In this document: one piece after another, positions 2,280-42,156 of the stretch
Layout of the letters: each line of letters begins with the position of its first letter
Numbering within the stretch: position 1 is the stretch's first letter
Assembly: GCA_051294905.1 (NCBI GenBank)
Contig: CM119371.1
Location: 24,926,001 to 24,990,000 of the forward strand
Source: Botryllus schlosseri
Lineage: Eukaryota
Direction: 5' to 3'
Length of the DNA stretch: 64,000 nt
The notes under the pieces: model-generated
What the model saw: the letters and a program-made list of their open reading frames with translations, nothing else
What the model was told of the DNA's origin: nothing
Database searches by the model: none
Translations under genes and position numbers: made by a program

Positions 2280-5200
2280 CGGTGTTGAATATGTATCAAG
2301 TAGATAGTCATGTGAATGAGCCTTTGTTAATGTGTATATCGAAAATTATTATATATGATGGCATAGTTCAGTCGTGACAAATGACCGATCGTGTTCTAAG
2401 TATTTCCTCGCTATTGATTGCTAGCTGGATAATACTTTCAGTTCGGATTATTCGCACCTTCCGTACCGCTGTTTCGCACCTATAGAATAGTCTGCTGTTC
2501 ACAGTCACAACAAGAATCACAAGTATACACATTATACATTCATTGTATTTATTACTCTGAAATCAAACTCTTCACAAAAGCACGCACAATCGTATCATTA
2601 ACTTTTTTATCATCACCAAAATTATTCAAGTATTCCTTCAAAAAGGTGTGAAATAGGTTGCAAATCCCGCGATCGCTGACGATATAACACCTCAGACATA
2701 GCGATCACGCGCGACGTTATGTTACATACATACCGATTGCCACAAGGTAATATTTTGATAGTTTGGCACGGAACTGGATTTCACCGGTAAGATTTAATAA
2801 GTAACGAATAACAGAACTGCCACCGGTGGGACTTGAATACCAACAAATTGTCACTTATTTCTACTCTAACCGTAATCCTTTGCGAAGTTAACGCTCATTC
2901 GAAAAGGCGTGAAATAATTTTAAAATCCTACGACCGCTCACAGGATAATGCCTCAGACATTGCGACCCTCGTGATTTCGTGTTACAGAGATACCGATCAC
3001 TCACAAGGTAATATTTTGGTAATTAGCCCGTCACAGAACCGTCGTAGACGGCGATTCGTTTTCACACCTTGGAATAGCGATTGACTTTAGTCGAGGAACG
3101 AGAATCATGATAATACTCAATCGCGGTGGTATTTCGTCAACTTGAAACTCACTACAAAACTCAAGTTGAATCGTATCCGAATGCGTAAATTTATCACCTT
3201 GACATCAAGATAATATTATTCAAAAGTCCGTAAACATGGTACTGTCTTATATCAATAATATTAAGAATGTTGATCGCTTGATTGTCGGATTATTCACTCG
3301 TTGATTTGAAACAAACATTGAAACGCACAACTCTATCTGGTCTATAATTATTTTTTTACAACTGAGTTTCTGAAAATGCTATCATTATCACACCTCGAAA
3401 TTTTACCGTGTTAGAACACACAAGAGAGTCAAGCACAAAAACATTCACATGTGTTAAACCTAGTTTTCACTTATACTTGATTATATTACTAAAACTTGTA
3501 AACTATATTAATTCATCCTGGTGAACACGAATAGTGTTGCTCGCTTGTAATATTCACGTACTGATATGAATAATAACAACTCATGAGACCCTACAACTTT
3601 AATAACGAGCTGGTTACGAAACTGGAAAGGTAAACTCTATTCGTCTCAACATCTCAACATCTTACAACACTCGAAAGGGTCAATTACGAAACCACCGCCA
3701 AGTAAACCCGTTTGTAACTCACCCAATCAACTCAAACAGTATCAGTATGAAAACACCCAAGCATACACGAGTCCATACAATCACTAAAACCTAACGTCCG
3801 TAACAAGCTCGGCTGTATTCATATCCCTACGACGGGTCTTTTTTTTTCAACTGTAAAAGTCGTTACTATTTCGCAAGACAAAGTAATTACTACTCGATAT
3901 ATTTTGTAAGATAAAAGTAATTTCTACTCGGTGCAGGTGACTTGAGATTAACACATTACATTTAAGTATACGAGATTTGAATGTCTGACCAACGTAGTTG
4001 AGAATTCATTTCTTACAATCGAACGCTGGTGTTATATTCGAAGTTATCATGCTGTAAACATAAGGATTGACACATTGATTTGACATATGTTATAGTTGAT
4101 CATGACTTGAATATTAAATTATTTGCGTTAATTAGACACGGCGTTGTGGCAAATGTTATGACAGCAACAAACTTTTCAGTGCCATTGTTCTTAACATATT
4201 AAGTTGTGAAACTATACGTGTCTGAAATGTTCTTGATTGGAGAATTACTCCACCTCGATAAAAATCACTCTGCGCATCGCGATATCAGGAAATATTTTAC
4301 AAATGTAATTGTTTCCAGTAACCAAGACTAAAGATGAAACAGCAATATCGGTATTATTACATTCAACAACCAGTACAATTATTAAAATCTATCGTTTGCG
4401 ATAAACAACGCTAAAGATGCAATAATTCCATTATTCATACATTGAACATCCGATACAAAATGCTTTATTATCCCGATTCGCAACGGGTAATTGAAACGAC
4501 TAAGTGTAGAGTCAGTATATCACAATGACACGTCGTTACTATTGAATCCAGCAATTGATACGATTTATTGCCGGGATTTGTGACAGCGCATTGAAACATA
4601 CACAACTTACAGAGTGTGAAAATATCACTTTGGGTATCGAGTACCCTTTGAAGCGCGCAATCAATACATAATTCCAGTTGCACTCTCTAAGACATTGTGA
4701 AGTCTACGGATTTACACTTCAAGACTTTGATCAACACAGAAGCAATTTGGAATATCTTTACTGGACGCATCCTATTCAACTAGACTTGAGTATACGAAAA
4801 ACTCATAGCATTAACAAAATCGCAATAGGCGCTACACTGAAATTTACAAAATGTGTTTGTATTCTTGCTCAAAGTAGTGATCATGAATTATCATTTGAAT
4901 CTTCTAAAGTAATTGTAATCGTAAAACCAAACTTGCGAAAGTCATTACCATAACAAAAGAATATTGTAGGTTGCTTGCTAATTGTATGCCGGAAATATTT
5001 GTAGAACGCTCACGACCAAAGAAATCGGAAATTGTCATTCATCAAAGTAAATGTCGTCACAATACTCTGCCACTAAAAGACGTTACTCGTATGTGATTGA
5101 ATCGCCGGTAATTAACTCGCTAAATCAAACCCTAAGAAATTTCACTCACTCATCGGATATTAAACAGCGTCGCTTAATCGGTGTAGTTCGTTTTTTTCTA

Positions 5201-5951
5201 AATACAAATCATACCTAGCCAACAGAAAACAATTTTCACTCACTCGGTAATGAAAACAAGTGGTGGGTCTCCATTCGATATTTTGTTTGTGTCAAATACT
5301 TTGCAATGAACACATTTGAGTGGTTGAGCTTTACATCATCAAGCTGTCATTTTTAAATCAAGATTTCGGTCAACTTGTAAATGTATCATTTAACTAACCG
5401 ACATTTGGTGATTCGTGAACATACCAAACGATACACATCCACCTCCGATCTTAATTTCCATCATCGTAATAATCGAAGTACATTTCTTTCGAATTCGTAA
5501 CAACCGGCTTTTCTGTGACATGATAAATTTTTGACAAGTTATGCTTAGAAGATTGGTTGCATATCTCGAAAAATAATATACCGCTCATATTGATACTGTT
5601 ACTCGGTATTTTTCCCGTTGTCGATTTTCAAACGAGTAAAATTTATTACTTGAGTTTCTCCGCTTACTATATGTAAATGTAAACTCAGTCGTCTTTTAAC
5701 ATCACAAATACATTGATAAAAAGTAGGCAATCAAACGCTACAAGTTTAACTTTTGTAGGATGTGTATGATTACCCCACGCAACTCATTTCTTACCAAAGG
5801 TATATGAAATATATTCATGGTACACGAAAATACTCGATATTCCCATACTACGAACCTGTACAACGATTGGCGGTGCTTTCAACTGTTTCGATAACTCAAG
5901 AACTTTATTGTCTGAATGGATGTTCATGCATCTTAATAATCAAATAGTTCA
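2280..5951 (+). repeat. Left arm of the outer inverted repeat
   Basis: Pairs with 7257-9652 and 23011-24285, with scattered substitutions (e.g. ORF 5762 MYDYP vs ORF 7261-7446 MYDYS). Confidence 0.95.
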
Positions 5952-6859
5952 ACACAGAACTAGTATTAACAGAAACATCAGAGTTGTCTACACAAAAGTT
6001 TGTATGTGTACAGTATGCGAATACCATGTGTAAGTCCAGCACAATTGTGGTATACATCCGAGTTTAGTTAACACAAATTTATTACAACGGAGCCACGAAA
6101 ACTTTCGTGAAAGAAAAGCATACTCACTTCTGAGGGTTATGTCAATGCCATAGCAGTAAATCAAAAATATTCCTAACCCTTTGCACACCAGTGACAAATC
6201 ATACAACAAACATTTTTTGTGAGTCGAATTGTTGTTCAGCGTCAAGTCTACCTGTTGAATAGTGCATTAAAACAACACAGTCACAATTCAATTAAAACCA
6301 CGAATCTATTTTCATTTCGTCACAAACTGTCACATACAGAAAAAAAAAATTTCTTTCCCCAACGCATACTTGTGACCAATCGATTTCATTAAACACACAA
6401 CTCCATAAAAGTATTTACTTTCTACAACATAGACATTCCGATGTAGTCAAGAAATATTAAAACTGACACGACACGACTGAATGTAAGGGGATAGAAGTCT
6501 ATCGCATCGATTTACATGTGGTCTTCGCTACGGTTTCAAAAAACGAATCATCTATTTTGCATTGGTCGAGACCGAGCGAGCCAGTTACATGTATTCGCGG
6601 TAATGATTTTGCTTTTCATATGCGAATGATAGGTTTGCTACTCCGACAAATCAAATCAACAAACAACAACAATCTTCTGACGATCATAATAGCAATTTCA
6701 TTTGCCACCCCTTCGTAATTGTACACTCACGAAAAGTATATTGTACAACTCGGCAACTACGTTTAACAAGACCAATCACACTACCAGCGTTGAACACAAG
6801 ATACCTACCCAATTCAAAAATATCATACTGGTTTGGACAACTGACGTTTACCTGTGTAA

Positions 6860-7256
6860 AATTATCATTTTCACTTGGCGATCTATCCTTTCCTAGAGTA
6901 ACAAACCCTTGTCGTTTACAAATCTATTTTTTTTTCCTACAGCAAAAAACTATTTTCCCTTGGAAAAATACTTTTACGTAGAGTAACTAATCATTTTCTT
7001 TTGAAAATATATTTTCTCCCTGGGTAACAAACCCTTTTCGTTTGGAAAACTATCATTTACCTGAGTACCAATACCGTTTTCACTTGGCAGTCCGTCGTTT
7101 ACCTGGCTAAACATATCATTTTCACTTGGAAATCTATTTTTTCCCAGAGTAAGAAACCTTTTTCACTTGGAAATATATTTTTTCCCGGGTAACAAACCTT
7201 TTTCACTTGGAAATATATTTTTTCCCCGGGCAACAAACCTTTTTCGCTTGGAAATG
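6860..7256 (+). repeat. ~41-bp tandem array (TTTTCACTTGGAAATMTATTTTTTCCCNGGGTAACAAACC-like) in the outer element
   Basis: Repeated degenerate units; same unit as 14640-15075. Confidence 0.9.
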
Positions 7257-9652
7257 TGAACTATTTGATTATTGAGATGCATGAACATCCATTCAGACAA
7301 TAAAGTTCTTGAGTTATCGAAACAGTTGAAAGCACCGCCAATCGTTGTACAGGTTCGTAGTATGGAAATATCGAGTATTTTCGAGTACCATGAATATATT
7401 TCATATACCTTTGGTAAGAAATGAGTTGCGTGGAGTAATCATACACATCCTACAAAAGTTAAACTTGTAGCGTTTGATTGCCTACTTTTTATCAATGTAT
7501 TTGTGATGTTAAAAGACGACTGAGTTTACATTTACATATAGTAAGCGGAGAAACTCAAGTAATAAATTTTACTCGTTTGAAAATCGACAACGGGAAAAAT
7601 ACCGAGTAACAGTATCAATATGAGCGGTATATTATTTTTCGAGATATGCAACCAATCTTCTAAGCATAACTTGTCAAAAATTTATCATGTCACAGAAAAG
7701 CCGGTTGTTACGAATTCGAAAGAAATGTACTTCGATTATTACGATGATGGAAATTAAGATCGGAGGTGGATGTGTATCGTTTGGTATGTTCACGAATCAC
7801 CAAATGTCGGTTAGTTAAATGATACATTTACAAGTTGACCGAAATCTTGATTTAAAAATGACAGCTTGATGATGTAAAGCTCAACCACTCAAATGTGTTC
7901 ATTGCAAAGTATTTGACACAAACAAAATATCGAATGGAGACCCACCACTTGTTTTCATTACCGAGTGAGTGAAAATTGTTTTCTGTTGGCTAGGTATGAT
8001 TTGTATTTAGAAAAAAACAAACTACACCGATTAAGCGACGCTGTTTAATATCCGATGAGTGAGTGGAATTTCTTAGCGTTTGATTTAGCGAGTTAATAAC
8101 CGGCGATTCAATCACATACGAGTAACGTCTTTTAGTGGCAGAGTATTGTGACGACATTTACTTTGATGAATGACAATTTCCGATTTCTTTGGTCGTGAGC
8201 GTTCTACAAATATTTCCGGCATACAATTAGCAAGCAACCTACAATATTCTTTTGTTATGGTAATGACTTTCGCAAGTTTGGTTTTACGATTACAATTACT
8301 TTAGAAGATTCAAATGATAATTCATGATCACTACTTTGAGCAAGAATACAAACACATTTTGTAAATTTCAGTGTAGCGCCTATTGCGATTTTGTTAATGC
8401 TATGAGTTTTTCGTATACTCAAGTCTAGTTGAATAGGATGCGTCCAGTAAAGATATTCCAAATTGCTTCTGTGTTGATCAAAGTCTTGAAGTGTAAATCC
8501 GTAGACTTCACAATGTCTTAGAGAGTGCAACTGGAATTATGTATTGATTGCGCGCTTCAAAGGGTACTCGATACCCAAAGTGATATTTTCACACTCTGTA
8601 AGTTGTGTATGTTTCAATGCGCTGTCACAAATCCCGGCAATAAATCGTATCAATTGCTGGATTCAATAGTAACGACGTGTCATTGTGATATACTGACTCT
8701 ACACTTAGTCGTTTCAATTACCCGTTGCGAATCGGGATAATAAAGCATTTTGTATCGGATGTTCAATGTATGAATAATGGAATTATTGCATCTTTAGCGT
8801 TGTTTATCGCAAACGATAGATTTTAATAATTGTACTGGTTGTTGAATGTAATAATACCGATATTGCTGTTTCATCTTTAGTCTTGGTTACTGGAAACAAT
8901 TACATTTGTAAAATATTTCCTGATATCGCGATGCGCAGAGTGATTTTTATCGAGGTGGAGTAATTCTCCAATCAAGAACATTTCAGACACGTATAGTTTC
9001 ACAACTTAATATGTTAAGAACAATGGCACTGAAAAGTTTGTTGCTGTCATAACATTTGCCACAACGCCGTGTCTAATTAACGCAAATAATTTAATATTCA
9101 AGTCATGATCAACTATAACATATGTCAAATCAATGTGTCAATCCTTATGTTTACAGCATGATAACTTCGAATATAACACCAGCGTTCGATTGTAAGAAAT
9201 GAATTCTCAACTACGTTGGTCAGACATTCAAATCTCGTATACTCAAATGTAATGTGTTAATCTCAAGTCACCTGCACCGAGTAGAAATTACTTTTATCTT
9301 ACAAAATATATCGAGTAGTAATTACTTTGTCTTGCGAAATAGTAACGACTTTTACAGTTGAAAAAAAAGACCCGTCGTAGGGATATGAATACAGCCGAGC
9401 TTGTTACGGACTTAAGGTTTTAGTGATTGTATGGACTCGTGTATGCTTGGGTGTTTTCATACTGATACTGTTTGAGTTGATTGGGTGAGTTACAAACGGG
9501 TTTACTTGGCGGTGGTTTCGTAATTGACCCTTTCGAGTGTTGTAAGATGTTGAGATGTTGAGACGAATAGAGTTTACCTTTCCAGTTTCGTAACCAGCTC
9601 GTTATTAAAGTTGTAGGGTCTCATGAGTTGTTATTATTCATATCAGTACGTG
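7257..9652 (-). repeat. Outer right arm, proximal part
   Basis: Reverse complement of ~3555-5951. Confidence 0.95.
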
Positions 9653-9679
9653 AGTAGTAGTATAGATCGGTCGCGAACG

Positions 9680-9910
9680 GCTATTGTTTCTTATGGGCGC
9701 GGCGGCGAGCGGCTGGGAAAACTCGTGGTGGCGAGCGGCTCTTATTTCTTATGGGCGCGGCGGCGAGCGGCTATTGCGTCTTATGGGTGCGGCGGCAAGC
9801 GGCTCTTATTTCTTATGGGCGGGGTCGCAAGCGGCTGGGAAACCCGGGGTGGCAAGCGGCTTTTATGTCTTATGGGTGCGGTGGCGAGCGGCTATTGTGT
9901 CTTGTGGTCG
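9680..9910 (+). repeat. GC-rich subterminal tandem repeats (26-32 bp; TCTTATGGGYGCGGCGGCRAGCGGCT)
   Basis: TTATGGG at 9691, 9749, 9781, 9813 and 9870; mirrored at ~22747-22977. Confidence 0.9.
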
Positions 9911-12900
9911 CACGGTAACCCTTTTCAGTATAGGGATCGCTCGCACGCGGCTTCGTTGTTGGCATGTCGTACTCCGTGTTGAATATGTATCAAGTAAATA
10001 GTCATGTGATTGGTCCTTTGTTAATGTGTATATTCCAAATTACGGCGAGTACGACAATGATATATCGTTATTCTTATGGACGCGGCGATGATTCGTACTT
10101 TCGGGTATAGGCTGCGGGTGGAATGTCGTACTTTCAACAAAAAAGACGTGAAAATAGTTTGCAAAATCTAGGAATTACTCGCATGGTAATGTTTGGGTAA
10201 TTAGATTATCACAGAGCCAGCGTAGAAGGCGATTCGAATATCAACAATAACCACGCTCACAAACTAACACTTCAAAAAGATGTGAAATATTTGTAAAATC
10301 CTACGATCGCCCACAAGATAACACCTCAGACATAGTCATCTTTCACGACTTGGTGTCATAGCCATACCGATCACTCACGCGGTGAAATTTTCGTAAGCAG
10401 TTTGGCACAGAACTTGATTTCACTCGTAAGATTTAATAAGTAACGAATAACAGACCGCCAGTGTCGGTAACTTGAATAGCGACAAATTGTCACTTATTTC
10501 CGCTCTAACCCTAATCCTTTGTGAAGTGAACGCTTATTCAAAAGGGTGTGATATAATTTTAAAATCCAACGACCACTCACCGGATAATGCTTCAGACATA
10601 GCAATCCCTCATGCCCGCTCACAAGGTAATATTTCGGTAATTAGTTTGTCACAGATCCGTCGCAGACGGTGATTCGAAAACCAACAATTTGTCATTTGCC
10701 CGCGATCGCTATATGTTTCACGCCTCCGGAATAGTGGCTGACTTTAGTTGCGTGATAAGATCCATGAAAATATTCAATCAATGCGTTAGTTTGTCAACTT
10801 GAATTGAAACTCACTACACAAATCAAGTTGAATCGTATTTGAATGTATTGATTCGACCCAACTCAAATCCTTTGACAAATCCTATTAACGCGATCTGTTG
10901 AATCGAACGTAACCTGAATATTACTGACGCCAAAATTAGCCCGCATCGGATTATTCACACATTCCGCACCGCTGTTTTCACACCTATAGAATCAATACCA
11001 ACTAGCTCAATGAGAATCAGGAATAACAAGTATACAATAATTGTATTTAATACTGAGAAATCAAACGCTTAACAAAAACACGCAACTAATCATTTGCCAA
11101 CTCTAGCATTACCAAAAAAATTCAGGCATTGTCGATTGAAAATCCTTGAGTCCATATCAAAAATGTTATAGTGCGGTGTCGGAATCCATTCGCGGGATGT
11201 ACTAAAGGTAAATTCAGATAATCCAAAATGAAATATTTGGACTTTGACATAGTCTGAATTGAAATAAATTGACAAACATGACTACCAACTTTCAATCCAG
11301 TCATATTTAGAATTAGATTTGAAACAAGTAATGAAACCTTACAACTCTATTCACGACTGAGTTTTCCGTTTGTCCAATAGAGTTTCAGTAATTACTATCG
11401 CGATATTTTAATGTGTTACTACACACAATCGAGTCAGTCAATGAAATACCACCTGTTGTAAATATTTCTAACTTGACAACCACTTGTGCATACCACGATC
11501 TAGTTGCGACGCGCTGAGTTAAATCGGAATATTTCAATCTATTTGTCGAAACCTTGAACAAGTTGTCTGGTTATTTTTTTGTTGCAATTGAGTTAACGGA
11601 AATAGTATTACGTCTCGACATTTTAACATCTTACCATACTCCAAAAGAGTCAACAAGGAAAAACCTTGTCACGTAAATCCGATTGTAACTCACCCAATCA
11701 ACTCACCAGTATCCGTATGGAAAGTAGTCAAGATTACGCAAGTACATACAATCGCTACAATCTAAAATCCATAGCAAGTTCGGTTGTAGTCATATACCGC
11801 CAACTCGTCTTTTTTGTTCAACTGTGAAAGTAATTACTACTCGGTATACCGTGTAACATAAAGTAATTACTACTCGGTGCACGCAACTTGAGATTGCCAT
11901 ATGTTGAGAATATACGACATTTGAAAGTCTGACCAACGTAGTTAAGAATTCATTTCTCACGATCAAACGCAGGCGTTATCTTGAAAATTATCATGATGTA
12001 AACATAAGGATTGACACAGTGATTTGACATATGTAATAGTTGATCATGACTTGACTATTAAATTATTTGCGTTAATTAGACCCGGCGTTGTGGTAAAGAT
12101 TATTGTGACAGCAACAAACTTTTCAGTACCATTGTTATTAACATATTGAGTTGTAAACTATGTGTGTCTAAAATGTTCTCGATTGGAAAATTATTCAGCC
12201 TTGGTACAAACCACGCAGTGTATTGTGGATATCAGGAAATATTTTACAAATGTAATTGTCTGCAGTAAACAAGACTAAAGATGAAACAACAATTTCCTTT
12301 GTTGAACAATAACCGGTGCAATACCTTATTGTCGGTGAGAATTGAAACACTTTCGCGCATTACCTGGTGTCAAGATATCACACTAGGTGAATTGACATAC
12401 CACCATTTGATTAATGCTTAATCCGTTCGCGTCATTTCACACACACTTTGATCATTACAAAAAAACAAATTGGAATATGTTTGCTAGGCACCACCTATTC
12501 AACTATACTTGAGTAATACAGAAACCTCTCAGCATTAATAAAATCGAAATGTGCGCTACACTGAAATCTACAAAATGTGTTTGTATTGCTGTTCGTAGTA
12601 GTGATATCGATTTGAACCTCCATCATCTAACCAAACTACTGAGAGTCGTTGTCAATTTACATGACGTTCACTGATTACATACTAGAACTATTTGTGCAAC
12701 GCACACGATCAGAGAAATTGGACATTTTTCCATTGCCATTCGTCAAAGTAAATGTCGTCACAATAATCAGTCACTAAAAGACCATATACTTGTATGTGAT
12801 TGAATCGCCGACAATTAACTCGGTAAATCAAACCCCTGAGAAATTTCACTCAGTCATTGGATAGGAAACAGCGTCGCTTAATCGGTGTGAGTCGTTTTTT

Positions 12901-14639
12901 CTAAATACTAATCATATCTGTCCAGCCAAGAACAATTTTCACTCACTTGGGTAACGAAACCAGTGCCCAATATCAATACAAGATATTTTCGTCACACAAA
13001 AATAATCAACTTCACTCGATATTCCCGTACTACGAAACTGTACAAAGGTTACATGTTTTTGTATGACATGGAATTAATACCGATCGAAGTAACCGTATTG
13101 GAAATAACTTTTAAACAAACACACTCTACGTGGTTAACATTCTCGTCGATTCTATTGTGATTAATGTATACTTCATGTGATCTGGATTCATTTCGATATG
13201 GCTAAACATTCAACCTCGACGGATACGAATTGTCACACACTCAAGTAATATCATACCAAATAGTTATTTACAAGACACAGAAAATTTGTTATGGTCGTTT
13301 CGACTTTATTACTGGAGATACTCATCACTTCGCTTAATACAATCTAGATTTAAACTCCATCGAACCTTTGGTGTCTATCGTTTTGCTGGATACGAATTAT
13401 GTTAGTCTAAGAGTACACAATTTTCACTATCTTGGGTTATGAACTCAGTGTGTTAGCGATCATTCAATATTTTGTAGTATCAACTAGCTACTTCGTAGGA
13501 TACGAATGATCATCCTCACAACTCTTACAAAAGTACGAAGGATATTTACATCACACAAAGTAATCGACTTTACTCGATATCCTCACACTACGAAACTGAA
13601 TGGTTGGTTTGACTCTAGAAACTGTTCTGATGTCACAAGAACTTTTTCATACGAATGGTTACGTATCTAAATATTCAAATAATCCAACACACGACTATAG
13701 TACTTACAGAAATATCATAGTTCTTGTAACAAAGTTGTATAAGTATAATGTTTATCGTAAGTCCTACATAGCCATGATATCCGTCCGAGTTTGACTTTTA
13801 GAAAACATTATACTGACATCGCGACATCTTTCGAAATTAAAACCACGGTGACTGCTTCAGAGACCTACCAATGATATTGCAGTAATACAGTTACTTCCAC
13901 AAAAGAGTATGTATTCGACTTGCTTACCACAAATCTAACGCACAAAACAATTTATTTTACTAACGAGAAGCGCCGAGCCTCACATCAAAACAACTAGAAA
14001 GTGGAACTATATTAAAAAACGTCGCTAACCTTTGTGCACCAGCTGTAAATCACACAAGCAACATGTTTCAAGATTCTGGTTATTGAAAAACGTTAAAGTG
14101 TTTCTCCTGCACCAAGTCGTTATGTTGACGAAAGGGTATATTGTAATACCATGATCGATTTGCATTCGTTGGTCACAAACTGTCACTACTCTAAATAATT
14201 ATTTTTCACTCAAACACAAAAGCATACTCGTCGCCAATCGTTTTCATCAAGCACGAGTTCAAGAAGCTTACTTACTACGACATGAATTGTTATTTTTATG
14301 TTGTGTAAATAGGTAATAATTTATTTTAGTAACACTACATCAACATCATCGAGTTGTGCGAATAGATTTACATGTGGTTTTAATCGAAGTACACAGCACG
14401 GTCTAATGTAGATTCATCTCTATTGTACAGCAACTCGGTAATCGAAATGCATTAACATTTAAACAACGATCTTGGTTCGTCACGCGAAAAATATCTTTAC
14501 TGTCACAACACTCTGATACTCTGTACAAGATGTGTAAATCCTTTTCACACTCATAATAATACACTAACGGGATACCGACGTCAAGCAACAACGTTTAACA
14601 ACATCACTGACACTGAACATACGATACCTGCACAAGTAA

Positions 14640-15075
14640 AAATATCATTTTCACCAGGAGGTCAGCCGTTACTTGTGTACAATTACGATTTTCCCTTGGG
14701 GGTTTAGCGTTACCCGAGTAACAAAACCATTTTCACTTGGAAATATATGTTTTCCCTCAACAACAAACGTTTTTCACTTGGAAATATATTTTTTCCCTGG
14801 GTAACAATCCTTTTTCACTTGGAAATCTATTTTTTCCCTGGGTAACAATCCTTTTTTCACTTGGAAATCTATTTTTTCCCTGGGTAACAATCCTTTTTCA
14901 CTTGGAAATCTATTTTTTCCCTGGGTAACAAACCATTTCCACTTGGTGGTCCGTCGTTTACCTGAGTAAAAATATCATTTTCCTTTTGAGATCCGACGTT
15001 TACCCAGTGTAACAATACATTTTCTCTTGGCCATCTAGCTTTTCCTAAAGTAACAAAACCATTTCATTTTGAAAT
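14640..15075 (+). repeat. 41-bp tandem array in the inner left arm
   Basis: CACTTGG at 14734, 14775, 14816, 14858, 14899 and 14940, with degenerate flanking units. Confidence 0.92.
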
Positions 15076-16348
15076 CTGACAAACACACCTGCCAATTTGG
15101 TATTTGTTGTATTGACGACAGTTTGAAATAGATTACAACGAACAGTGACGGAAATGTACACGGACTACCAGTTTCAAAGTATTCCCACATCAGTCGTATC
15201 ACATCAATATCATCGGTTAACCACATGAAATAACAATACGCCGTTGTACACGGAAATGCATGTTTTGGAAAATTGGACAATAGGCTTCGATAGGTCTGTG
15301 ATGTCCGGGTTCGTACTTTAGTTTTTGCACAGAGTCCATACCTCTTAATAAAACACCACCTCGACTTTGGTACCTGGCTGGTACATGGATAACGGTGGTC
15401 GGAAATCGATGAATATAGGTTCTCGTCGTGCTAACAGTTCCGGGCTACTTGTGATTTTTCTCACACATGTTTACTATATTGTGTCACTCTTTATTGGTCA
15501 ATACATATCCCATCGTTCAGTCTGAAATCGGAAACCCGAGCAAGTATTAACCGGATCCGGATATCAACTCTGAATCAAAAAACCAATGAAACATGTCACA
15601 CCCTGTGTTTCCATGGAAGTAACAAGACATTACACATCAAGTATACTTCGCGATTGTTCATAGATACCAAGTATTCGCGTAAACGAGGTGTGTGACATTA
15701 CATACATCATGGATAACATCATGGCCGGCATTACAAACATCATGGATGACAAATTCATGTTCTCAAGTCTCGTCATGAACCGACTCTGTACATTCAATGT
15801 GGGGTAGAGGACTTGGAGACAGACAAACACACATATTTGACCGTAACATGATCTAAGCACGAACCGACATGTATTCAACTTGGAGAAAAATGAGTCGCGT
15901 CGTATTTCACGAGATTACATCCCCTTTTGTGGTTCACACCTTGATTTTGCTTACATCGTGATCCAGACCTCGGAGTGTAGTAAAATCGGGCTATGTAGTT
16001 TAATTACTTGCTCACTCCCTGTGTGTTGGTGGTGGTCATACCCTGCAAACTTTTTTTTTTCTTAGAACGTAGTGTTTCGCCTTACATCAGTTGGTTCAAT
16101 GTATGTACCGAGTTGTGAAAGCTGCCGCTGTTTTGACTATGCGTCACAATCAATACTAAAACGGGAATTCGTTACTCGTTGAAACGTCGCAGTCAGACAT
16201 CGTTAACAGCGATTCCGCGTATGGAAATCTTAAATTCGATTGCGGTTTTGTAATGTAATCCGGGTTACTGTGTTTCTGTGGTGTGAAGACTAAATTCGTG
16301 TTGATCCCCCCTGCAAGAGTGCGATGTCTATTTCACACCTAGAGTTAT

Positions 16349-16355
16349 TATAAAA
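16349..16355 (+). promoter_or_regulatory. Candidate TATA box (TATAAAA) for the loop ORF
   Basis: Canonical TATAAAA ~120 bp upstream of the ATG at 16470, in the unique loop. Confidence 0.4.
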
Positions 16356-16469
16356 CGCATCTTCGAAACCATTGGTCTACTTCATCTGCTTGCATGTCGA
16401 AACGGACCATAACCACAAGACTCTAACCCACCACATTCGTGGTTTCAGTTGATCGTATCGAAGAATATC

Positions 16470-16745
16470 ATGTCCATCCGTTTTACCACCCACAGATTTC
16501 TCCATCCTCACACTTTAATGCTAAGACACAGACAAGATGCGGTTGTGGAAATATTGAAAATGAGAAAGCAGACCTTGGTGTCATTTGATTTGGATTTTAC
16601 ACCCGATGAACCCCTCATTCGTACTGCGCATTGGGGTGCGGATTCTATCGTCGATGTCGATGGAAAAGAAATGTACAGATTTGTTGGTGTCGTGGATATT
16701 CAACGAAAATCGGGGTACATGATTGTACGCGGTTACCGTATATGA
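16470..16745 (+). CDS. Hypothetical 91-aa protein (MSIRFTTHRFLHPHTLMLRH...GYMIVRGYRI) in the palindrome loop
   Basis: ATG in ATCATG context, intronless, wholly within the non-repeated loop. Globular-looking composition; upstream TATA; AATAAA at 17162. No family recognised. Confidence 0.45.
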   Translation: MSIRFTTHRFLHPHTLMLRHRQDAVVEILKMRKQTLVSFDLDFTPDEPLIRTAHWGADSIVDVDGKEMYRFVGVVDIQRKSGYMIVRGYRI

Positions 16746-16806
16746 CTGTGAAGATATCGCTATACATAACGTGCTGTTCACCGTATCGATCGCACCAACG
16801 AATATC

Positions 16807-19800
16807 CATGTAACGGTCAAATATGTGTGTTTGTCTGTCTCCAAGTCCTCTACCCCACATTGAATGTACAGAGTCGGTTCATGACGAGACTTGAGAACAT
16901 GAATTTGTCATCCATGATGTTTGTAATGCCGGCCATGATGTTATCCATGATGTATGTAATGTCACACACCTCGTTTACGCGAATACTTGGTATCTATGAA
17001 CAATCGCGAAGTATACTTGATGTGTAATGTCTTGTTACTTCCATGGAAACACAGGGTGTGACATGTTTCATTGGTTTTTTGATTCAGAGTTGATATCCGG
17101 ATCCGGTTAATACTTGCTCGGGTTTCCGATTTCAGACTGAACGATGGGATATGTATTGACCAATAAAGAGTGACACAATATAGTAAACATGTGTGAGAAA
17201 AATCACAAGTAGCCCGGAACTGTTAGCACGACGAGAACCTATATTCATCGATTTCCGACCACCGTTATCCATGTACCAGCCAGGTACCAAAGTCGAGGTG
17301 GTGTTTTATTAAGAGGTATGGACTCTGTGCAAAAACTAAAGTACGAACCCGGACATCACAGACCTATCGAAGCCTATTGTCCAATTTTCCAAAACATGCA
17401 TTTCCGTGTACAACGGCGTATTGTTATTTCATGTGGTTAACCGATGATATTGATGTGATACGACTGATGTGGGAATACTTTGAAACTGGTAGTCCGTGTA
17501 CATTTCCGTCACTGTTCGTTGTAATCTATTTCAAACTGTCGTCAATACAACAAATACCAAATTGGCAGGTGTGTTTGTCAGATTTCAAAATGAAATGGTT
17601 TTGTTACTTTAGGAAAAGCTAGATGGCCAAGAGAAAATGTATTGTTACACTGGGTAAACGTCGGATCTCAAAAGGAAAATGATATTTTTACTCAGGTAAA
17701 CGACGGACCACCAAGTGGAAATGGTTTGTTACCCAGGGAAAAAATAGATTTCCAAGTGAAAAAGGATTGTTACCCAGGGAAAAAATAGATTTCCAAGTGA
17801 AAAAAGGATTGTTACCCAGGGAAAAAATAGATTTCCAAGTGAAAAAGGATTGTTACCCAGGGAAAAAATATATTTCCAAGTGAAAAACGTTTGTTGTTGA
17901 GGGAAAACATATATTTCCAAGTGAAAATGGTTTTGTTACTCGGGTAACGCTAAACCCCCAAGGGAAAATCGTAATTGTACACAAGTAACGGCTGACCTCC
18001 TGGTGAAAATGATATTTTTACTTGGGCAGGTATCGTATGTTCAGTGTCAGTGATGTTGTTAAACGTTGTTGCTTGACGTCGGTATCCCGTTAGTGTATTA
18101 TTATGAGTGTGAAAAGGATTTACACATCTTGTACAGAGTATCAGAGTGTTGTGACAGTAAAGATATTTTTCGCGTGACGAACCAAGATCGTTGTTTAAAT
18201 GTTAATGCATTTCGATTACCGAGTTGCTGTACAATAGAGATGAATCTACATTAGACCGTGCTGTGTACTTCGATTAAAACCACATGTAAATCTATTCGCA
18301 CAACTCGATGATGTTGATGTAGTGTTACTAAAATAAATTATTACCTATTTACACAACATAAAAATAACAATTCATGTCGTAGTAAGTAAGCTTCTTGAAC
18401 TCGTGCTTGATGAAAACGATTGGCGACGAGTATGCTTTTGTGTTTGAGTGAAAAATAATTATTTAGAGTAGTGACAGTTTGTGACCAACGAATGCAAATC
18501 GATCATGGTATTACAATATACCCTTTCGTCAACATAACGACTTGGTGCAGGAGAAACACTTTAACGTTTTTCAATAACCAGAATCTTGAAACATGTTGCT
18601 TGTGTGATTTACAGCTGGTGCACAAAGGTTAGCGACGTTTTTTAATATAGTTCCACTTTCTAGTTGTTTTGATGTGAGGCTCGGCGCTTCTCGTTAGTAA
18701 AATAAATTGTTTTGTGCGTTAGATTTGTGGTAAGCAAGTCGAATACATACTCTTTTGTGGAAGTAACTGTATTACTGCAATATCATTGGTAGGTCTCTGA
18801 AGCAGTCACCGTGGTTTTAATTTCGAAAGATGTCGCGATGTCAGTATAATGTTTTCTAAAAGTCAAACTCGGACGGATATCATGGCTATGTAGGACTTAC
18901 GATAAACATTATACTTATACAACTTTGTTACAAGAACTATGATATTTCTGTAAGTACTATAGTCGTGTGTTGGATTATTTGAATATTTAGATACGTAACC
19001 ATTCGTATGAAAAAGTTCTTGTGACATCAGAACAGTTTCTAGAGTCAAACCAACCATTCAGTTTCGTAGTGTGAGGATATCGAGTAAAGTCGATTACTTT
19101 GTGTGATGTAAATATCCTTCGTACTTTTGTAAGAGTTGTGAGGATGATCATTCGTATCCTACGAAGTAGCTAGTTGATACTACAAAATATTGAATGATCG
19201 CTAACACACTGAGTTCATAACCCAAGATAGTGAAAATTGTGTACTCTTAGACTAACATAATTCGTATCCAGCAAAACGATAGACACCAAAGGTTCGATGG
19301 AGTTTAAATCTAGATTGTATTAAGCGAAGTGATGAGTATCTCCAGTAATAAAGTCGAAACGACCATAACAAATTTTCTGTGTCTTGTAAATAACTATTTG
19401 GTATGATATTACTTGAGTGTGTGACAATTCGTATCCGTCGAGGTTGAATGTTTAGCCATATCGAAATGAATCCAGATCACATGAAGTATACATTAATCAC
19501 AATAGAATCGACGAGAATGTTAACCACGTAGAGTGTGTTTGTTTAAAAGTTATTTCCAATACGGTTACTTCGATCGGTATTAATTCCATGTCATACAAAA
19601 ACATGTAACCTTTGTACAGTTTCGTAGTACGGGAATATCGAGTGAAGTTGATTATTTTTGTGTGACGAAAATATCTTGTATTGATATTGGGCACTGGTTT
19701 CGTTACCCAAGTGAGTGAAAATTGTTCTTGGCTGGACAGATATGATTAGTATTTAGAAAAAACGACTCACACCGATTAAGCGACGCTGTTTCCTATCCAA

Positions 19801-22800
19801 TGACTGAGTGAAATTTCTCAGGGGTTTGATTTACCGAGTTAATTGTCGGCGATTCAATCACATACAAGTATATGGTCTTTTAGTGACTGATTATTGTGAC
19901 GACATTTACTTTGACGAATGGCAATGGAAAAATGTCCAATTTCTCTGATCGTGTGCGTTGCACAAATAGTTCTAGTATGTAATCAGTGAACGTCATGTAA
20001 ATTGACAACGACTCTCAGTAGTTTGGTTAGATGATGGAGGTTCAAATCGATATCACTACTACGAACAGCAATACAAACACATTTTGTAGATTTCAGTGTA
20101 GCGCACATTTCGATTTTATTAATGCTGAGAGGTTTCTGTATTACTCAAGTATAGTTGAATAGGTGGTGCCTAGCAAACATATTCCAATTTGTTTTTTTGT
20201 AATGATCAAAGTGTGTGTGAAATGACGCGAACGGATTAAGCATTAATCAAATGGTGGTATGTCAATTCACCTAGTGTGATATCTTGACACCAGGTAATGC
20301 GCGAAAGTGTTTCAATTCTCACCGACAATAAGGTATTGCACCGGTTATTGTTCAACAAAGGAAATTGTTGTTTCATCTTTAGTCTTGTTTACTGCAGACA
20401 ATTACATTTGTAAAATATTTCCTGATATCCACAATACACTGCGTGGTTTGTACCAAGGCTGAATAATTTTCCAATCGAGAACATTTTAGACACACATAGT
20501 TTACAACTCAATATGTTAATAACAATGGTACTGAAAAGTTTGTTGCTGTCACAATAATCTTTACCACAACGCCGGGTCTAATTAACGCAAATAATTTAAT
20601 AGTCAAGTCATGATCAACTATTACATATGTCAAATCACTGTGTCAATCCTTATGTTTACATCATGATAATTTTCAAGATAACGCCTGCGTTTGATCGTGA
20701 GAAATGAATTCTTAACTACGTTGGTCAGACTTTCAAATGTCGTATATTCTCAACATATGGCAATCTCAAGTTGCGTGCACCGAGTAGTAATTACTTTATG
20801 TTACACGGTATACCGAGTAGTAATTACTTTCACAGTTGAACAAAAAAGACGAGTTGGCGGTATATGACTACAACCGAACTTGCTATGGATTTTAGATTGT
20901 AGCGATTGTATGTACTTGCGTAATCTTGACTACTTTCCATACGGATACTGGTGAGTTGATTGGGTGAGTTACAATCGGATTTACGTGACAAGGTTTTTCC
21001 TTGTTGACTCTTTTGGAGTATGGTAAGATGTTAAAATGTCGAGACGTAATACTATTTCCGTTAACTCAATTGCAACAAAAAAATAACCAGACAACTTGTT
21101 CAAGGTTTCGACAAATAGATTGAAATATTCCGATTTAACTCAGCGCGTCGCAACTAGATCGTGGTATGCACAAGTGGTTGTCAAGTTAGAAATATTTACA
21201 ACAGGTGGTATTTCATTGACTGACTCGATTGTGTGTAGTAACACATTAAAATATCGCGATAGTAATTACTGAAACTCTATTGGACAAACGGAAAACTCAG
21301 TCGTGAATAGAGTTGTAAGGTTTCATTACTTGTTTCAAATCTAATTCTAAATATGACTGGATTGAAAGTTGGTAGTCATGTTTGTCAATTTATTTCAATT
21401 CAGACTATGTCAAAGTCCAAATATTTCATTTTGGATTATCTGAATTTACCTTTAGTACATCCCGCGAATGGATTCCGACACCGCACTATAACATTTTTGA
21501 TATGGACTCAAGGATTTTCAATCGACAATGCCTGAATTTTTTTGGTAATGCTAGAGTTGGCAAATGATTAGTTGCGTGTTTTTGTTAAGCGTTTGATTTC
21601 TCAGTATTAAATACAATTATTGTATACTTGTTATTCCTGATTCTCATTGAGCTAGTTGGTATTGATTCTATAGGTGTGAAAACAGCGGTGCGGAATGTGT
21701 GAATAATCCGATGCGGGCTAATTTTGGCGTCAGTAATATTCAGGTTACGTTCGATTCAACAGATCGCGTTAATAGGATTTGTCAAAGGATTTGAGTTGGG
21801 TCGAATCAATACATTCAAATACGATTCAACTTGATTTGTGTAGTGAGTTTCAATTCAAGTTGACAAACTAACGCATTGATTGAATATTTTCATGGATCTT
21901 ATCACGCAACTAAAGTCAGCCACTATTCCGGAGGCGTGAAACATATAGCGATCGCGGGCAAATGACAAATTGTTGGTTTTCGAATCACCGTCTGCGACGG
22001 ATCTGTGACAAACTAATTACCGAAATATTACCTTGTGAGCGGGCATGAGGGATTGCTATGTCTGAAGCATTATCCGGTGAGTGGTCGTTGGATTTTAAAA
22101 TTATATCACACCCTTTTGAATAAGCGTTCACTTCACAAAGGATTAGGGTTAGAGCGGAAATAAGTGACAATTTGTCGCTATTCAAGTTACCGACACTGGC
22201 GGTCTGTTATTCGTTACTTATTAAATCTTACGAGTGAAATCAAGTTCTGTGCCAAACTGCTTACGAAAATTTCACCGCGTGAGTGATCGGTATGGCTATG
22301 ACACCAAGTCGTGAAAGATGACTATGTCTGAGGTGTTATCTTGTGGGCGATCGTAGGATTTTACAAATATTTCACATCTTTTTGAAGTGTTAGTTTGTGA
22401 GCGTGGTTATTGTTGATATTCGAATCGCCTTCTACGCTGGCTCTGTGATAATCTAATTACCCAAACATTACCATGCGAGTAATTCCTAGATTTTGCAAAC
22501 TATTTTCACGTCTTTTTTGTTGAAAGTACGACATTCCACCCGCAGCCTATACCCGAAAGTACGAATCATCGCCGCGTCCATAAGAATAACGATATATCAT
22601 TGTCGTACTCGCCGTAATTTGGAATATACACATTAACAAAGGACCAATCACATGACTATTTACTTGATACATATTCAACACGGAGTACGACATGCCAACA
22701 ACGAAGCCGCGTGCGAGCGATCCCTATACTGAAAAGGGTTACCGTGCGACCACAAGACACAATAGCCGCTCGCCACCGCACCCATAAGACATAAAAGCCG

Positions 22801-23004
22801 CTTGCCACCCCGGGTTTCCCAGCCGCTTGCGACCCCGCCCATAAGAAATAAGAGCCGCTTGCCGCCGCACCCATAAGACGCAATAGCCGCTCGCCGCCGC
22901 GCCCATAAGAAATAAGAGCCGCTCGCCACCACGAGTTTTCCCAGCCGCTCGCCGCCGCGCCCATAAGAAACAATAGCCGTTCGCGACCGATCTATACTAC
23001 TACT
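16807..23004 (-). repeat. Right ~6.2-kb inverted arm of the inner element
   Basis: Reverse complement of 9653-15850; includes the mirrored 41-bp array (~17582-18017). Confidence 0.97.
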
Positions 23005-23010
23005 TACGTG

Positions 23011-24630
23011 AATATTACAAGCGAGCAACACTATTCGTGTTCACCAGGATGAATTAATATAGTTTACAAGTTTTAGTAATATAATCAAGTATAAGTGAAA
23101 ACTAGGTTTAACACATGTGAATGTTTTTGTGCTTGACTCTCTTGTGTGTTCTAACACGGTAAAATTTCGAGGTGTGATAATGATAGCATTTTCAGAAACT
23201 CAGTTGTAAAAAAATAATTATAGACCAGATAGAGTTGTGCGTTTCAATGTTTGTTTCAAATCAACGAGTAAATAATCCGACAATCAAGCGATCAACATTC
23301 CTAATATTATTGATATAAGACAGTACCATGTTTACGGACTTTTGAATAATATTATCTTGATGTCAAGGTGATAAATTTACGCATTCGGATACGATTCAAC
23401 TTGAGTTTTGTAGTGAGTTTCAAGTTGACGAAATACCACCGCGATTGAGTATTATCATGATTCTCGTTCCTCGACTAAAGTCAATCGCTATTCCAAGGTG
23501 TGAAAACGAATCGCCGTCTACGACGGTTCTGTGACGGGCTAATTACCAAAATATTACCTTGTGAGCGATCGGTATCACTGTAACACCAAATCACGAGGGT
23601 CGCAATGTCTGAGGCATTATCCTGTGAGCGGTCGTAGGATTTTAAAATTATTTCATGCCTTTTCGAATGAGCGTTAACTTCGCAAAGGATTACGGTTAGA
23701 GTAGAAATAAGTGACAATTTGTTGGCATTCAAGTCCCACCGGTGGCAGTTCTGTTATTCGTTACTTATTAAATCTTACCGGTGAAATCCAGTTCCGTGCC
23801 AAACTATCAAAATATTACCTTGTGGCAATCGGTATGTATGTAACATAAAGTCGCGCCTGATCGCTATGTCTGAGGTGTGATATCGTCAGCGATCGCGGGA
23901 TTTGCAACCTATTTCACTCCTTTTTGAAGGAATACTTGAATAATTTTGGTGATGATAAAAAAGTTAATGATACGATTGTGCGTGCTTTTGTGAAGAGTTT
24001 GATTTCAGAGTAATAAATACAATGAATGTATAATGTGTATACTTGTGATTCTTGTTGTGACTGTGAACAGCAGACTATTCTATAGGTGCGAAACAGCGGT
24101 ACGGAAGGTGCGAATAATCCGAACTGAAAGTATTATCCAGCTAGCAATCAATAGCGAGGAAAGACTTAGAACACGATCGGTCATTTGTCACGACTGAACT
24201 ATGCCATCATATATAATAATTTTCGATATACACATTAACAAAGGCTCATTCACATGACTATCTACTTGATACATATTCAACACCGTGCGACAGATGCCTA
24301 TACCCGAAAGGGCGATTCACGGCCGCACCCATAAGAACACATGGCGAGTCACCAGAGACCGCGTAAGAATACATGACAGGCGAATCACCGCCACCGCCTA
24401 TAGCAAAAAAGGCGAGTCACGACCACGAGTTTTCACGGCGAGTCACCGCCACGAGCTATACCTGAAAGGGCGAATCACGACCGCACCCATAAGAACACAT
24501 GGCGACTCACCGCCTAGAGGGGGGTCTAAAAAGGCGAGTCCCCACCCCCGGTTTTCTGGCGAGTCACCACCCCGCCCATAAGAGCCCCATGCAAAAGGGG
24601 GTGTGGTCACGACCGATCATCTATACTACT
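23011..24630 (-). repeat. Outer right arm, distal part, with GC-rich subterminal repeats (~24295-24600) and terminus
   Basis: 23011-24285 is the reverse complement of 2280-3554. Repeated GGCGAGTCAC and CCCATAAGA units; ends CTATACTACT. Confidence 0.9.
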
Positions 24631-30627: not shown

Positions 30628-32398
30628 CAGTGTTGTGATGACTCGAGTCATGACTTGACTCGAGTCAGACTCGAGTCACCTTTTTCGCATGACTAGACTT
30701 GACTCGAGTCACTTTGCAAAAATGACTTGACTTGACTTGACTCTGCGTATCAGAAATGAGGATTGACTCGTGACTCGGACCAAAATTCACGAGTCAATTT
30801 CAAGTCATCAAGTAATCGGTGTGGATTATTATTATTATTATAGGTAAAAACATTGGCATGAGTGGCGCTTATCACAACTGAAGGCTTTTTGCGCCACGGA
30901 CAGAAACAAGTTAAACGCTACAGAAAGTTCATGATATATAACTGAGATAGGTACACATGTGCACATAAAAAAGTTTTACAATATTCCTCGAGTCGATCTA
31001 ACATATTCAACAAGATATCGCAGTACTTGTGGATCAGTCAGTAGGGTTCGCATGTCAAAATTTACATTCTTCGACTCTGCATGGCGTCGTAAGCATTCTC
31101 TTTGATAGCGGTATTTTCTGCAATTCATGAGATAATGCTCTACGGTTTCCTCAATACCACATGCTTCGCACAGTTGCGAGTCGATGCATCCAATCTTGTT
31201 GAGATGGTGGTTTAGTCTGCAATGCGTCGTTCTTAACCGCAGCACAATCGAGTTTCCCAACCTTGTATCCATTTCAGATAGTCTGTCATGTACCGAGGGT
31301 CGCAGATCTTTGTACGCTCTCCCAGTATCTGTGGATTGATAGATGCGGTCCCATTCATCTTTGCAGCTCTTTAGCAAGTACGACCGTACGTCGGCGAGTG
31401 GGATGGCATGACTCCGGCGTATGTGTGTATTAGCAGCTCCCGCCCTTGCTAATTGATCTGCAGATTCATTACCGCGTATTCCGGAGTGTCCAGGCACCCA
31501 TACAAACGATATGGTAATTTCTGCTGTCCGCAACTGATGATTCAGCTCAATAATTTCATTCACCAGTGGATGAGGATTGACTCGTGACTCGGACCAAAAT
31601 TCACGAGTCAATTTCAAGTCATCAAGTAATCGGTGTGGATAAAAATCACTGTATCTTGCATATATTCGGATTGTTCGCAAAACGCTGGTGTAACCCGTGA
31701 GAGCGAATAATCATTCAAATATTGTGTGTTTCACTGAGTCTCGATTGTTCTCTCACAAAAAATTGACCGCAAACGAAGTGATCGTATCTTACATCTTACG
31801 TTGTCGTAAATCGAGTACGTAATAAAATAGCGAAATGTCTATTTCTGCTCTCTGTCCTTACCTTAACCAAACCTCTTGTTACATTGAAATCGAATATAGT
31901 TTATATAGTTCTCAACCATTGTCGCAGGCTCGATTTGTATCATTAATTTGTAAATGGGTAATGCATTGCATCTTATCAATTCGTTTGTCTATTCTCTATT
32001 TTGGCTGGTAACTTTAAACTGAGGCTATGCAAATACGTGGTTCAACAGTTCTACGTATATGTGAGAGATACAGCGTCTTCTTGCGAGGATATTCAACTCT
32101 ATATTCGTTCATTGGTTAGGAATTAATGACCACTCAATCTGTATTTCATTCAGCTAGCAGATTGCAATGACGTAATCATGCCTCATACTTCGAAAAGGCA
32201 ACTTGACTTGAAATGTGACTTGACTCGTGACTTGACTTGACTTGATTCGACTTGACTCGAGTCACATTTGAAAATCGAGTGACTTGACTTGACTCGAGTC
32301 ACATTTGAAAATCGATTGACTTGACTTGACTCGAGTCAAAATGTGCAATGACTCGAAATGACTCGTGACTCGAAGGTGGTGACTTGATCCCAACACTG
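30628..32398. mobile_element. hAT-type non-autonomous element with GACTCGAGTC/GACTT subterminal repeats; contains a LINE fragment
   Basis: TIRs CAGTGTTG...CAACACTG; 8-bp TSD CTTTGGGT/TTTTGGGT (7/8). Confidence 0.85.
30827..31569 (-). mobile_element. 5'-truncated RNase H-bearing non-LTR retrotransposon (LINE) 3' end
   Basis: Encodes the RNase H C-terminus (ISFVWVPGHSGIRGNESADQLA) and a CCHC-type finger (CEACGIEETVEHYLMNC); stop at 30976; (TAA)n tail; flanked by a 71-bp direct duplication. Confidence 0.9.
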
Positions 32399-42095: not shown

Positions 42096-42156
42096 TGTAG
42101 GTAAGGTCTTTGAAGAATGTAGGAGACAAAACGTACCTTTTCAACATAGACGCCAA

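Follow-up and report, generated by a model that had tools for sequence, protein, structure and literature searches.

The window analysed here, a stretch of 64,000 nucleotides (nt) of contig CM119371.1 in the Botryllus schlosseri assembly GCA_051294905.1 (495 Mb in 219 contigs), contains a 13,352-bp element that is almost entirely a palindrome (Table 1). We think it probable that this window element is a helper-dependent palindromic derivative of Mavericks (Polintons) of one clade of the same genome, clade or family D, and for the palindromic family at large a descent from family-D Mavericks and a dependence on them seem to us highly probable. An earlier interpretation made without database searches, referred to below as the sequence-only reading, had described (AGT)3 termini, a 6-bp target-site duplication (TSD) of TACGTG, arms of about 6.2 kb and a loop of about 960 bp, all of which were borne out. 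The repeat finder returned a single inverted pair (9648-15850 and 16807-23009, spacer 956 nt), and base-by-base comparison of the two arms gave two mismatches in 6,198 nt (14632/18025 and 15845/16812); the arms make up 92.8% of the element. The left end reads AGTAGTAGTATAGATCGG and the right end CCGATCTATACTACTACT, its reverse complement, in the pattern (AGT)3...(ACT)3. Behind each end lie about 230 nt of G+C-rich repeats, and repeats of the same type are found in the terminal repeat of autonomous family-D Mavericks.

A Polinton by definition encodes a protein-primed family-B polymerase (pPolB) and a retroviral-type integrase (excerpted text of PMC5499653). Because both are absent here, the window element is, on its gene content, a non-autonomous derivative rather than a Polinton in the strict sense. 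Neither an open reading frame (ORF) nor a remnant of pPolB or integrase was found in it by ORF listing, by Pfam or by tblastn with the ORFs of family A, an autonomous Maverick family described below. The longest stop-to-stop ORF has 131 aa (15038-15430, minus strand), and a Pfam scan of the 48 ORFs of at least 50 aa in the element gave no match below E 0.005 and no transposase remnant; Rfam and tRNA scans of window positions 1-26000 returned no Rfam family and no tRNA. The sequence-only reading had seen in the element a satellite without sizeable genes and without Polinton genes. This stood for intact Polinton genes, including a polymerase or integrase of its own, and has to be amended on two points: the loop holds a conserved 91-aa ORF, which most copies have, and each arm keeps a decayed trace of a Maverick protease gene, which is present in some copies and open in both arms of other members. 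The trace, about 200 bp long, has 68% nt identity to a better-kept remnant in another copy, C1:97149-129104.

In the excerpted text of PMC8097293, Maverick ends are typically 5'-AG...CT-3', in the form (AGT)2//(ACT)2 or (AG)3//(CT)3. The former, with perfect 6-bp duplications, is given there as the commonest end type of vertebrate Mavericks; intact copies of these are 12.7-24.6 kb long, with terminal repeats of 46-1,447 bp. Profile searches of the B. schlosseri genome gave no match for PF03175 (pPolB) from nine candidates and no candidate for PF00770 (adenain). We rejected both negatives as false because pPolB and the protease were each found in many copies by sequence query, and Pfam also misses the pPolB pieces themselves. 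The profile PF04665 (Pox_A32 ATPase) gave a single genomic match, which led to the 19.4-kb Maverick of family A (about 14 copies, ends AGTAGTATATAAGTGCTC, duplications CCTATT and TTCAAC). Its genes are those of a pPolB with a DTDS motif and Atlas neighbours that carry PF03175, an A32-like ATPase, an integrase with rve and Chromo domains and an adenain-like protease. A piece of the family-A pPolB found at least 118 matches in the genome, with 117 of 261 candidates scored, and many of these were open frames of about 1,290-1,310 aa. They fall into at least five classes of identity to the query, clades A to E (100-91, 71-66, 66-60, 43-40 and 38%), and the genome is thus unusually rich in Mavericks. 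Clade D is the class with 42% identity; its elements measure 15.8-17.4 kb and encode pPolB, the protease and further genes.

When the family-A ORFs of at least 80 aa were compared with 11 palindromic copies by tblastn, the protease was the sole significant match, as a frameshifted and outward-pointing remnant about 0.8-1.2 kb from each end of C1:97149-129104 (51% aa identity, E 1.6e-26). This remnant, used as a query, gave 150 scored loci at 88-99% aa identity. One group of them consists of single 188-aa open frames about 7.9 kb from a clade-D pPolB (e.g. C1:4151519 versus C1:4159390), and another of palindromes with the protease in both arms, such as C1:33470258(-)/33482444(+), where both frames have 192 aa within the end pair 33469825-33483208. 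The left end of the D copy C1:4150930 is AGTAGTTAAGTAGATCTCTCGCATGA, followed by CTTATGG..GGTGAGCGGCT units as in the palindromes. Identity between the first 180 bp of this 15.8-kb D copy and the ends of the palindromic copies is 74-96% in all 11, with the match starting at nt 1-2 in seven of them and at nt 28-38 in the window element and three others, and 26-nt end variants occur in identical form on autonomous elements and on 13.3-kb palindromic ones. Three autonomous D pairs, C1:4150930-4166713 (15,784 bp), C10:15432336-15449746 (17,411 bp) and C12:603822-620033 (16,212 bp), each enclose protease and pPolB matches and have the TSDs ACTATC, CACCTC and AACATC. A further copy, C1:34868426-34884932 (16.5 kb), carries the strict motif of the palindromic family, the protease and, beside it, a 432-aa ORF and is flanked by CACGAA, which brings the D copies with perfect 6-bp duplications to four of four. 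The palindromes are evidently non-autonomous relatives of clade-D Mavericks that share their cis-acting ends. A helper with the same ends exists in the genome, because D copies have terminal repeats, end variants, protease and 6-bp TSDs in common with the palindromes. The assignment to Polintons in the sequence-only reading was thereby upheld, and clade D supplies the autonomous elements with a shared end that it had pointed to.

The same homologies bear on whether the element could belong to another superfamily with 6-bp TSDs, as a foldback-type cut-and-paste element, or be a classical Foldback, with tips that merely resemble those of Mavericks. Very long inverted repeats with subterminal short repeats do recall elements of the Foldback and Galileo type as their excerpted descriptions present them. 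IS3EU and Dada would be candidate superfamilies with 6-bp duplications. However, homology to pPolB-encoding D Mavericks extends over the terminal 180 bp, a Maverick protease lies in the arms and the 48 ORFs are without a transposase remnant, so that we give this explanation hardly any credence.

The palindromic family is large. A genome-wide scan for its end motif, AGTAGTN6GATCGSTCGYGA, gave 767 forward and 756 reverse matches, and none in either orientation for the reversed control; by extrapolation we estimate about 700 palindromic copies. The two end motifs used in the analysis together mark about 1,590 ends. Autonomous elements of clades A and D also have at their ends the AGTAGT that the 1,523 motif matches contain by construction. 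A scan of IMG/VR with the motif returned four chance matches, in which the similarity did not extend beyond the motif. Many places in the genome resemble the terminal 300 bp with 87-96% identity, and often two of them form an inverted pair with a spacing of 10-15 kb. Identity between copies was 68-93% among those examined, and the closest relatives of the window copy reach 91-95% over 3-4 kb, with mosaic segments of 97-99%. Perfect 6-bp TSDs flanked 14 of the 15 elements with both flanks read, and all differed save for one coincidental second TACGTG, so the further copies with other duplications for which the sequence-only reading had advised a search are indeed there. The family shows a clear preference for targets with a central CpG: CG stood at target positions 3-4 in 15 of 25 insertion sites, compared with a CpG share of 4.3% of the dinucleotides in the window (binomial p ~7e-15). 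The favoured target is NNCGNN, often NACGTN, and CpG is not depleted in the genome (observed 0.043 at 39% G+C).

Inverted arms of 100% identity are a classic long-read artefact, and a foldback chimera or another assembly error would account for them. Against this, all loci examined, spread over at least 12 contigs, show this architecture, with a sequence variant and a 6-bp duplication in chromosomal context that are particular to each locus, and nested copies exist; we regard the chance of an artefact as negligible. In short contigs of four public runs (Logan), the element was covered tens to hundreds of times more deeply than the flank bin 22989-23500, which is nearly unique, and no piece bridged an arm-loop-arm junction or an empty site. 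Runs labelled as other organisms, which share 0.2-0.36 of the words of the probe, carry no weight here. Apparent joints in these short contigs (e.g. 8995 to 20500) were set aside, since they are explained by the likeness of an older element's arm to that of the window element. Self-nesting is common in the family and reaches three levels at contig 1, 16768420-16810257. Members of 21-23 kb (contig 12, 1562222-1583585; contig 2, 21163182-21186665) owe their size either to 7 kb of foreign DNA inserted some 300 bp away from the left end or to a palindrome inserted into a palindrome at arm position 922.

All 11 other copies examined are palindromes, with arms of 2-7 kb that are 99.3-100% identical and a middle piece of about 1 kb or more. 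A probe from the inner arm found 18 further loci, 15 of them inverted pairs, of which seven had equal bit scores for both arms. At least 23 inverted pairs of protease matches lie 5-18 kb apart, most with open frames of equal length in each arm (194/194, 143/143, 131/131 and 91/91 aa). The arms within a copy are thus 99.3-100% identical, whereas copies differ from each other by 5-30%, and therefore the two arms within a copy evolve in concert as the lineages diverge. Longer pairs of 17.6, 18.0 and 32 kb, considered as autonomous candidates, turned out to be palindromes with nested or foreign insertions and without any ORF above 200 aa. The window holds a second member of the family, an older one that hosts the window element in its right arm. 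Its arms (2280-5951 versus 7257-9652 plus 23011-24285) are 99.35% identical over 3,672 nt, its left terminal ~345 bp are missing, and weak protease traces were detected at 2564-2635 and 23930-24001 by tblastn and nucleotide comparison.

To compare lengths, we defined end pairs as same-hexamer variants among 100 listed motif places, all on contig 1. Among these pairs, 20 of 35 measure 13.0-15.0 kb (median 14.1 kb) and two are shorter than 12 kb; three longer ones are nests, which come to 13.1-14.0 kb after the inner element is subtracted. In a second set of end pairs, 15 of 26 fall at 13-15 kb. The palindromes are therefore somewhat shorter than the 15.8-17.4 kb of clade D, in keeping with the near-Polinton length remarked on in the sequence-only reading.

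The gene in the loop was found by a conservation test of every ORF of at least 70 aa in the element, in which one stood out. It is free of stops in 6 of the 10 other copies examined. In seven of seven aligned copies it has no stop and no indel, whereas the surrounding loop DNA is rich in indels, and all 21 pairs have ratios of non-synonymous to synonymous substitution (dN/dS) of 0.14-0.42, a pattern that marks the ORF as being under purifying selection. All seven have a box of the TATAAA type some 115-150 nt upstream of the ORF, with an invariant ATAAA core. Among 5.8 billion protein clusters only three close relatives were found, each of 91 aa and on contigs of about 1 kb, which is about the size of the loop. 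An exhaustive profile search with 11 sequences added one 694-aa WD40 protein (E 3.9e-5), matched repeat by repeat in five stretches; hhalign gave a probability of 49%, and Pfam found no WD40 match for the ORF at E up to 1. The predicted structure is all-beta with eight strands (pLDDT, the predicted local distance difference test score, 71.9), from one confident model of five, the other four being poor. A sandwich like that of small heat-shock proteins (alpha-crystallin) was the best Foldseek match in PDB and BFVD and was discarded, as its E of 0.02 is not significant. There was no match of the loop protein to four family-A capsid-module ORFs by hhalign or to the family-A element by tblastn, and no counterpart among the family-A genes compared. 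As a lead, the loop protein may be a two-blade WD40-like beta protein.

Table 1. Features of the palindromic element and its host element in the window (ORF, open reading frame; TSD, target-site duplication)
Feature	Position	Strand	Details
Whole palindromic element	9653..23004		13,352 bp; from repeat finder and reading of ends and TSD
Left arm	9653..15850		6,198 nt
Right arm	16807..23004		reverse complement of left arm
Unique loop	15851..16806		956 nt
Left terminus AGTAGTAGTATAGATCGGTCGCGA	9653..9676	+	Maverick-type (AGT)n end with the family's conserved subterminal motif
TSD, left copy, TACGTG	9647..9652		directly outside the element
TSD, right copy, TACGTG	23005..23010		directly outside the element
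Subterminal G+C-rich repeats	9678..9907		period ~32/121 nt; units CTTATGGGCG..GGCGAGCGGCT; mirror 22750-22979
41-nt tandem repeats, inner arm	14718..14946		5.5 units; mirror 17711-17939
Decayed trace of Maverick adenain-like protease gene	10970..11171	-	3' part of the gene; mirror 21486-21687 (+)
Loop ORF	16470..16745	+	91 aa and stop; open frame 16413-16742, ATG 16470, stop 16743-16745
TATAAAA box	16349..16355	+	115-121 nt upstream of the ATG of the loop ORF
Older family member	2280..24630		hosts the element in its right arm; right terminus 24607-24630

We propose the following course of events for the palindromes. Snap-back (copy-back) synthesis at the protease end of a Maverick would have produced their ancestor. 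As they have no polymerase or integrase of their own, we infer that the D enzymes would replicate and insert them. The clade-D polymerase, with its priming protein, would start at both identical ends of the palindrome. The displaced single strand, being self-complementary, would fold into a 6.2-kb hairpin, the duplex tip of which would again be an origin and would make second-strand synthesis easy. Mismatches between the arms would be exposed and repaired at the hairpin stage, and the arms would stay identical in this way. The D integrase would insert the duplex and so produce the 6-bp duplication. The mostly non-coding arms would be a stuffer that holds the length at 13-15 kb, about 85-90% of the helper, within the limits of capsid or replication, and the loop protein may serve the satellite. 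For hairpin or snap-back replication as the cause of arm identity, we see the chances as evenly balanced; that packaging sets the length of the palindrome is a tentative suggestion, to which we lean somewhat less.

A rival account has a substantial minority share of our belief. The palindromes may be ordinary non-autonomous transposons derived from Mavericks, for which the D integrase, and perhaps the polymerase, moves naked DNA. Host gene conversion in place, of the kind that acts on large chromosomal palindromes, would keep the arms alike, and the length would reflect recent bursts of a few masters of 13-14 kb, with neither virion nor snap-back. The public short contigs give no evidence of free or packaged forms, and the arms of the older element in the window are still 99.35% identical despite the nested insertion. 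In the nest C1:97149-129104, moreover, we calculate from identities and lengths that the arms of the outer, older element differ at about 20 places in 5,942 nt, compared with about 31 in 5,310 for the inner one. If the arms had only diverged since insertion, the older element should show more differences, not fewer. On the other hand, lineages that are 10-30% diverged, with the protease open, truncated or decayed, all have 13-15 kb; short deletion derivatives are rare (two of 35 pairs below 12 kb), unlike in typical cut-and-paste families; and the older element has neither lost the 13.4-kb nested insertion from the one arm nor gained it in the other.

Several points weigh against the helper-dependent, snap-back reading that we prefer. 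Gene conversion in place could equally well explain the identity of the arms, as the nest just described illustrates. By tblastn with the family-A ORFs, about 5 kb of each arm inside the protease region has no similarity to the genes of that family; the arms thus do not look like the outcome of a simple and recent snap-back at a D end, and the stuffer would be either old and decayed or of other origin. A central CG was present in one of four D duplications versus 15 of 25 palindrome sites, where four D sites are too few for a comparison. Four of the 10 other copies, which measure 9.5-18 kb and are shortened or rearranged, have no loop ORF, nor does the older element of the window have one; the ORF is therefore dispensable for the persistence of a copy. 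The strict motif by which the end pairs were located may under-sample short or damaged derivatives. Finally, mobilisation in trans, packaging and snap-back origin are all steps that we infer, and the public short contigs show a high copy number only.

A service to the host was also considered. Transcription of the arms would yield a long hairpin RNA and from it small RNAs against the terminal repeat and protease region of D Mavericks. The lead for this is the terminal repeat that the perfect inverted arms of 6.2 kb have in common with autonomous D elements, to which some copies add the protease. But the protease is gone from the window copy, the fresh duplications of some 700 dispersed insertions suggest selfish spread and the conserved loop ORF would be left unexplained, so that such a role seems highly improbable. 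The parts of the preferred reading can also be taken together. The family would then be the first satellite of an animal Maverick (polintovirus), a heritable snap-back genome of the defective-interfering kind that borrows the polymerase, integrase and capsid of D, outnumbers D by about 10:1, has its arms homogenised in the hairpin and its length set by the capsid at about 85-90% of the helper, and carries an orphan 91-aa beta protein that acts on helper or host to the satellite's advantage. As a whole, this combination is rather unlikely.

Comparison with known systems helps to place the palindromes. With Mavericks of clade D they share (AGT)n//(ACT)n ends, 6-bp duplications, the same subterminal repeat units and, in some copies, an adenain-like protease near the end. 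They differ in that the window element has no pPolB, integrase, ATPase or capsid genes and in that its inverted repeats span 93% of the element, compared with 46-1,447 bp in intact vertebrate Mavericks (excerpted text of PMC8097293). They are also about ten times as numerous as the autonomous clade (767 plus 756 ends versus about 60 clade-D pPolB matches among those scored). The Drosophila elements FB and Galileo, in excerpted accounts, resemble the family in their very long inverted repeats, internal short repeats, short middle and few or no genes. Elements of the FB type make duplications of 7-9 bp (9 bp for FB itself) and have arms that are mainly tandem repeats. The window arms, by contrast, are complex sequence with only two short repeat blocks and have a 6-bp duplication and different ends; the partners of Foldback elements are transposases of P or Mutator type and not a protein-primed polymerase with a retroviral-type integrase.

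Parallels are also found among viruses. Palindromic defective genomes in which long stretches are repeated in inverted orientation occur in incomplete particles of adenovirus. Adeno-associated virus has snap-back genomes that, as described in the excerpted text of PMC8235507, consist like the palindromes of inverted copies of one end around a short turn, with an origin at both ends, and likewise depend on a helper and have a length compatible with packaging. However, viral snap-back genomes are transient products of infection, whereas the palindromes are heritable, diversified and integrated in hundreds of copies; the latter have a conserved gene of their own and mostly non-viral stuffer, and are known here from sequence alone. 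Phage P4, phage-inducible chromosomal islands (PICIs) and, as parasites of giant viruses, virophages and transpovirons are helper-dependent as well and keep the cis signals of the helper and a small set of genes of their own. In satellites of the P4 and PICI type this set includes a gene that manipulates the helper, whereas the loop protein is known only from its sequence and a model. A full-text search of the published literature found no palindromic, satellite-like or high-copy non-autonomous Maverick family, in agreement with the sequence-only reading, which knew of no described family, although an entry in Repbase or Dfam is possible; in the excerpted text of PMC5499653 the phrase 'non-autonomous polintons' occurs once, for Tlr1. 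What appears to be new is the Maverick derivative itself, which is unusual in its architecture, has its own gene and shares the genome with an identified helper.

Other observations concern family A and the remainder of the window. The family-A copy on contig 11 (4509571-4526924) carries a caspase-domain gene (PF00656, E 1.6e-10; piece L062:2-640(+)) and a gene for a ubiquitin-conjugating enzyme (PF00179, E 1.6e-46; piece L062:1338-1853(-)), cellular-type accessory genes that lie between the protease and the right end. A 431-aa ORF beside the family-A protease, used as a query with 97 of 272 candidates scored, found about 17 loci with frames of 416-504 aa, most of 504 aa, at 35-36% identity. 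None of these loci (e.g. contig 3, 18981797-18983065) is near a scored polymerase, and they may represent a further Maverick-like or capsid-gene-bearing group. On contig 1, about 0.5 Mb from the window, inverted pairs of 13.6 and 10.7 kb (25495707-25509353 and 25755048-25765718) have 78-90% identity to the family-A terminal repeat and may be a second, independent non-autonomous derivative, of family A. Within the window, positions 38001-42140 (minus strand) hold a gag-pol frame of the long-terminal-repeat retrotransposon type, 1,379 aa and open throughout, with RVT_1, RNase H, integrase zinc-binding and rve domains, and positions 30976-31710 (minus strand) what is probably a retroelement tail, namely a 244-aa frame in which Pfam recognises RNase H (PF00075, E 4.4e-9).

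Mavericks are thought to be viral, but in animals there is hardly any observation of how they replicate and are packaged. Palindromes that depend on a helper and keep to a narrow range of lengths would be a natural readout of what a Maverick needs in cis, namely the ends, the subterminal repeats and the length, and their architecture is the expected product of protein-primed strand-displacement replication with copy-back. A parasite of Mavericks with a selected gene of its own would also offer a concrete protein to test. In the genome of B. schlosseri, about 760 end pairs of about 14 kb extrapolate to about 10 Mb, or some 2% of the assembly. Because the palindromes are long perfect inverted repeats, they are potential fragile sites and sources of hairpin RNA. 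If they are indeed packaged satellites, their insertions would be genomic evidence for a packaged, virion-like stage of Mavericks in the germ line of an animal.

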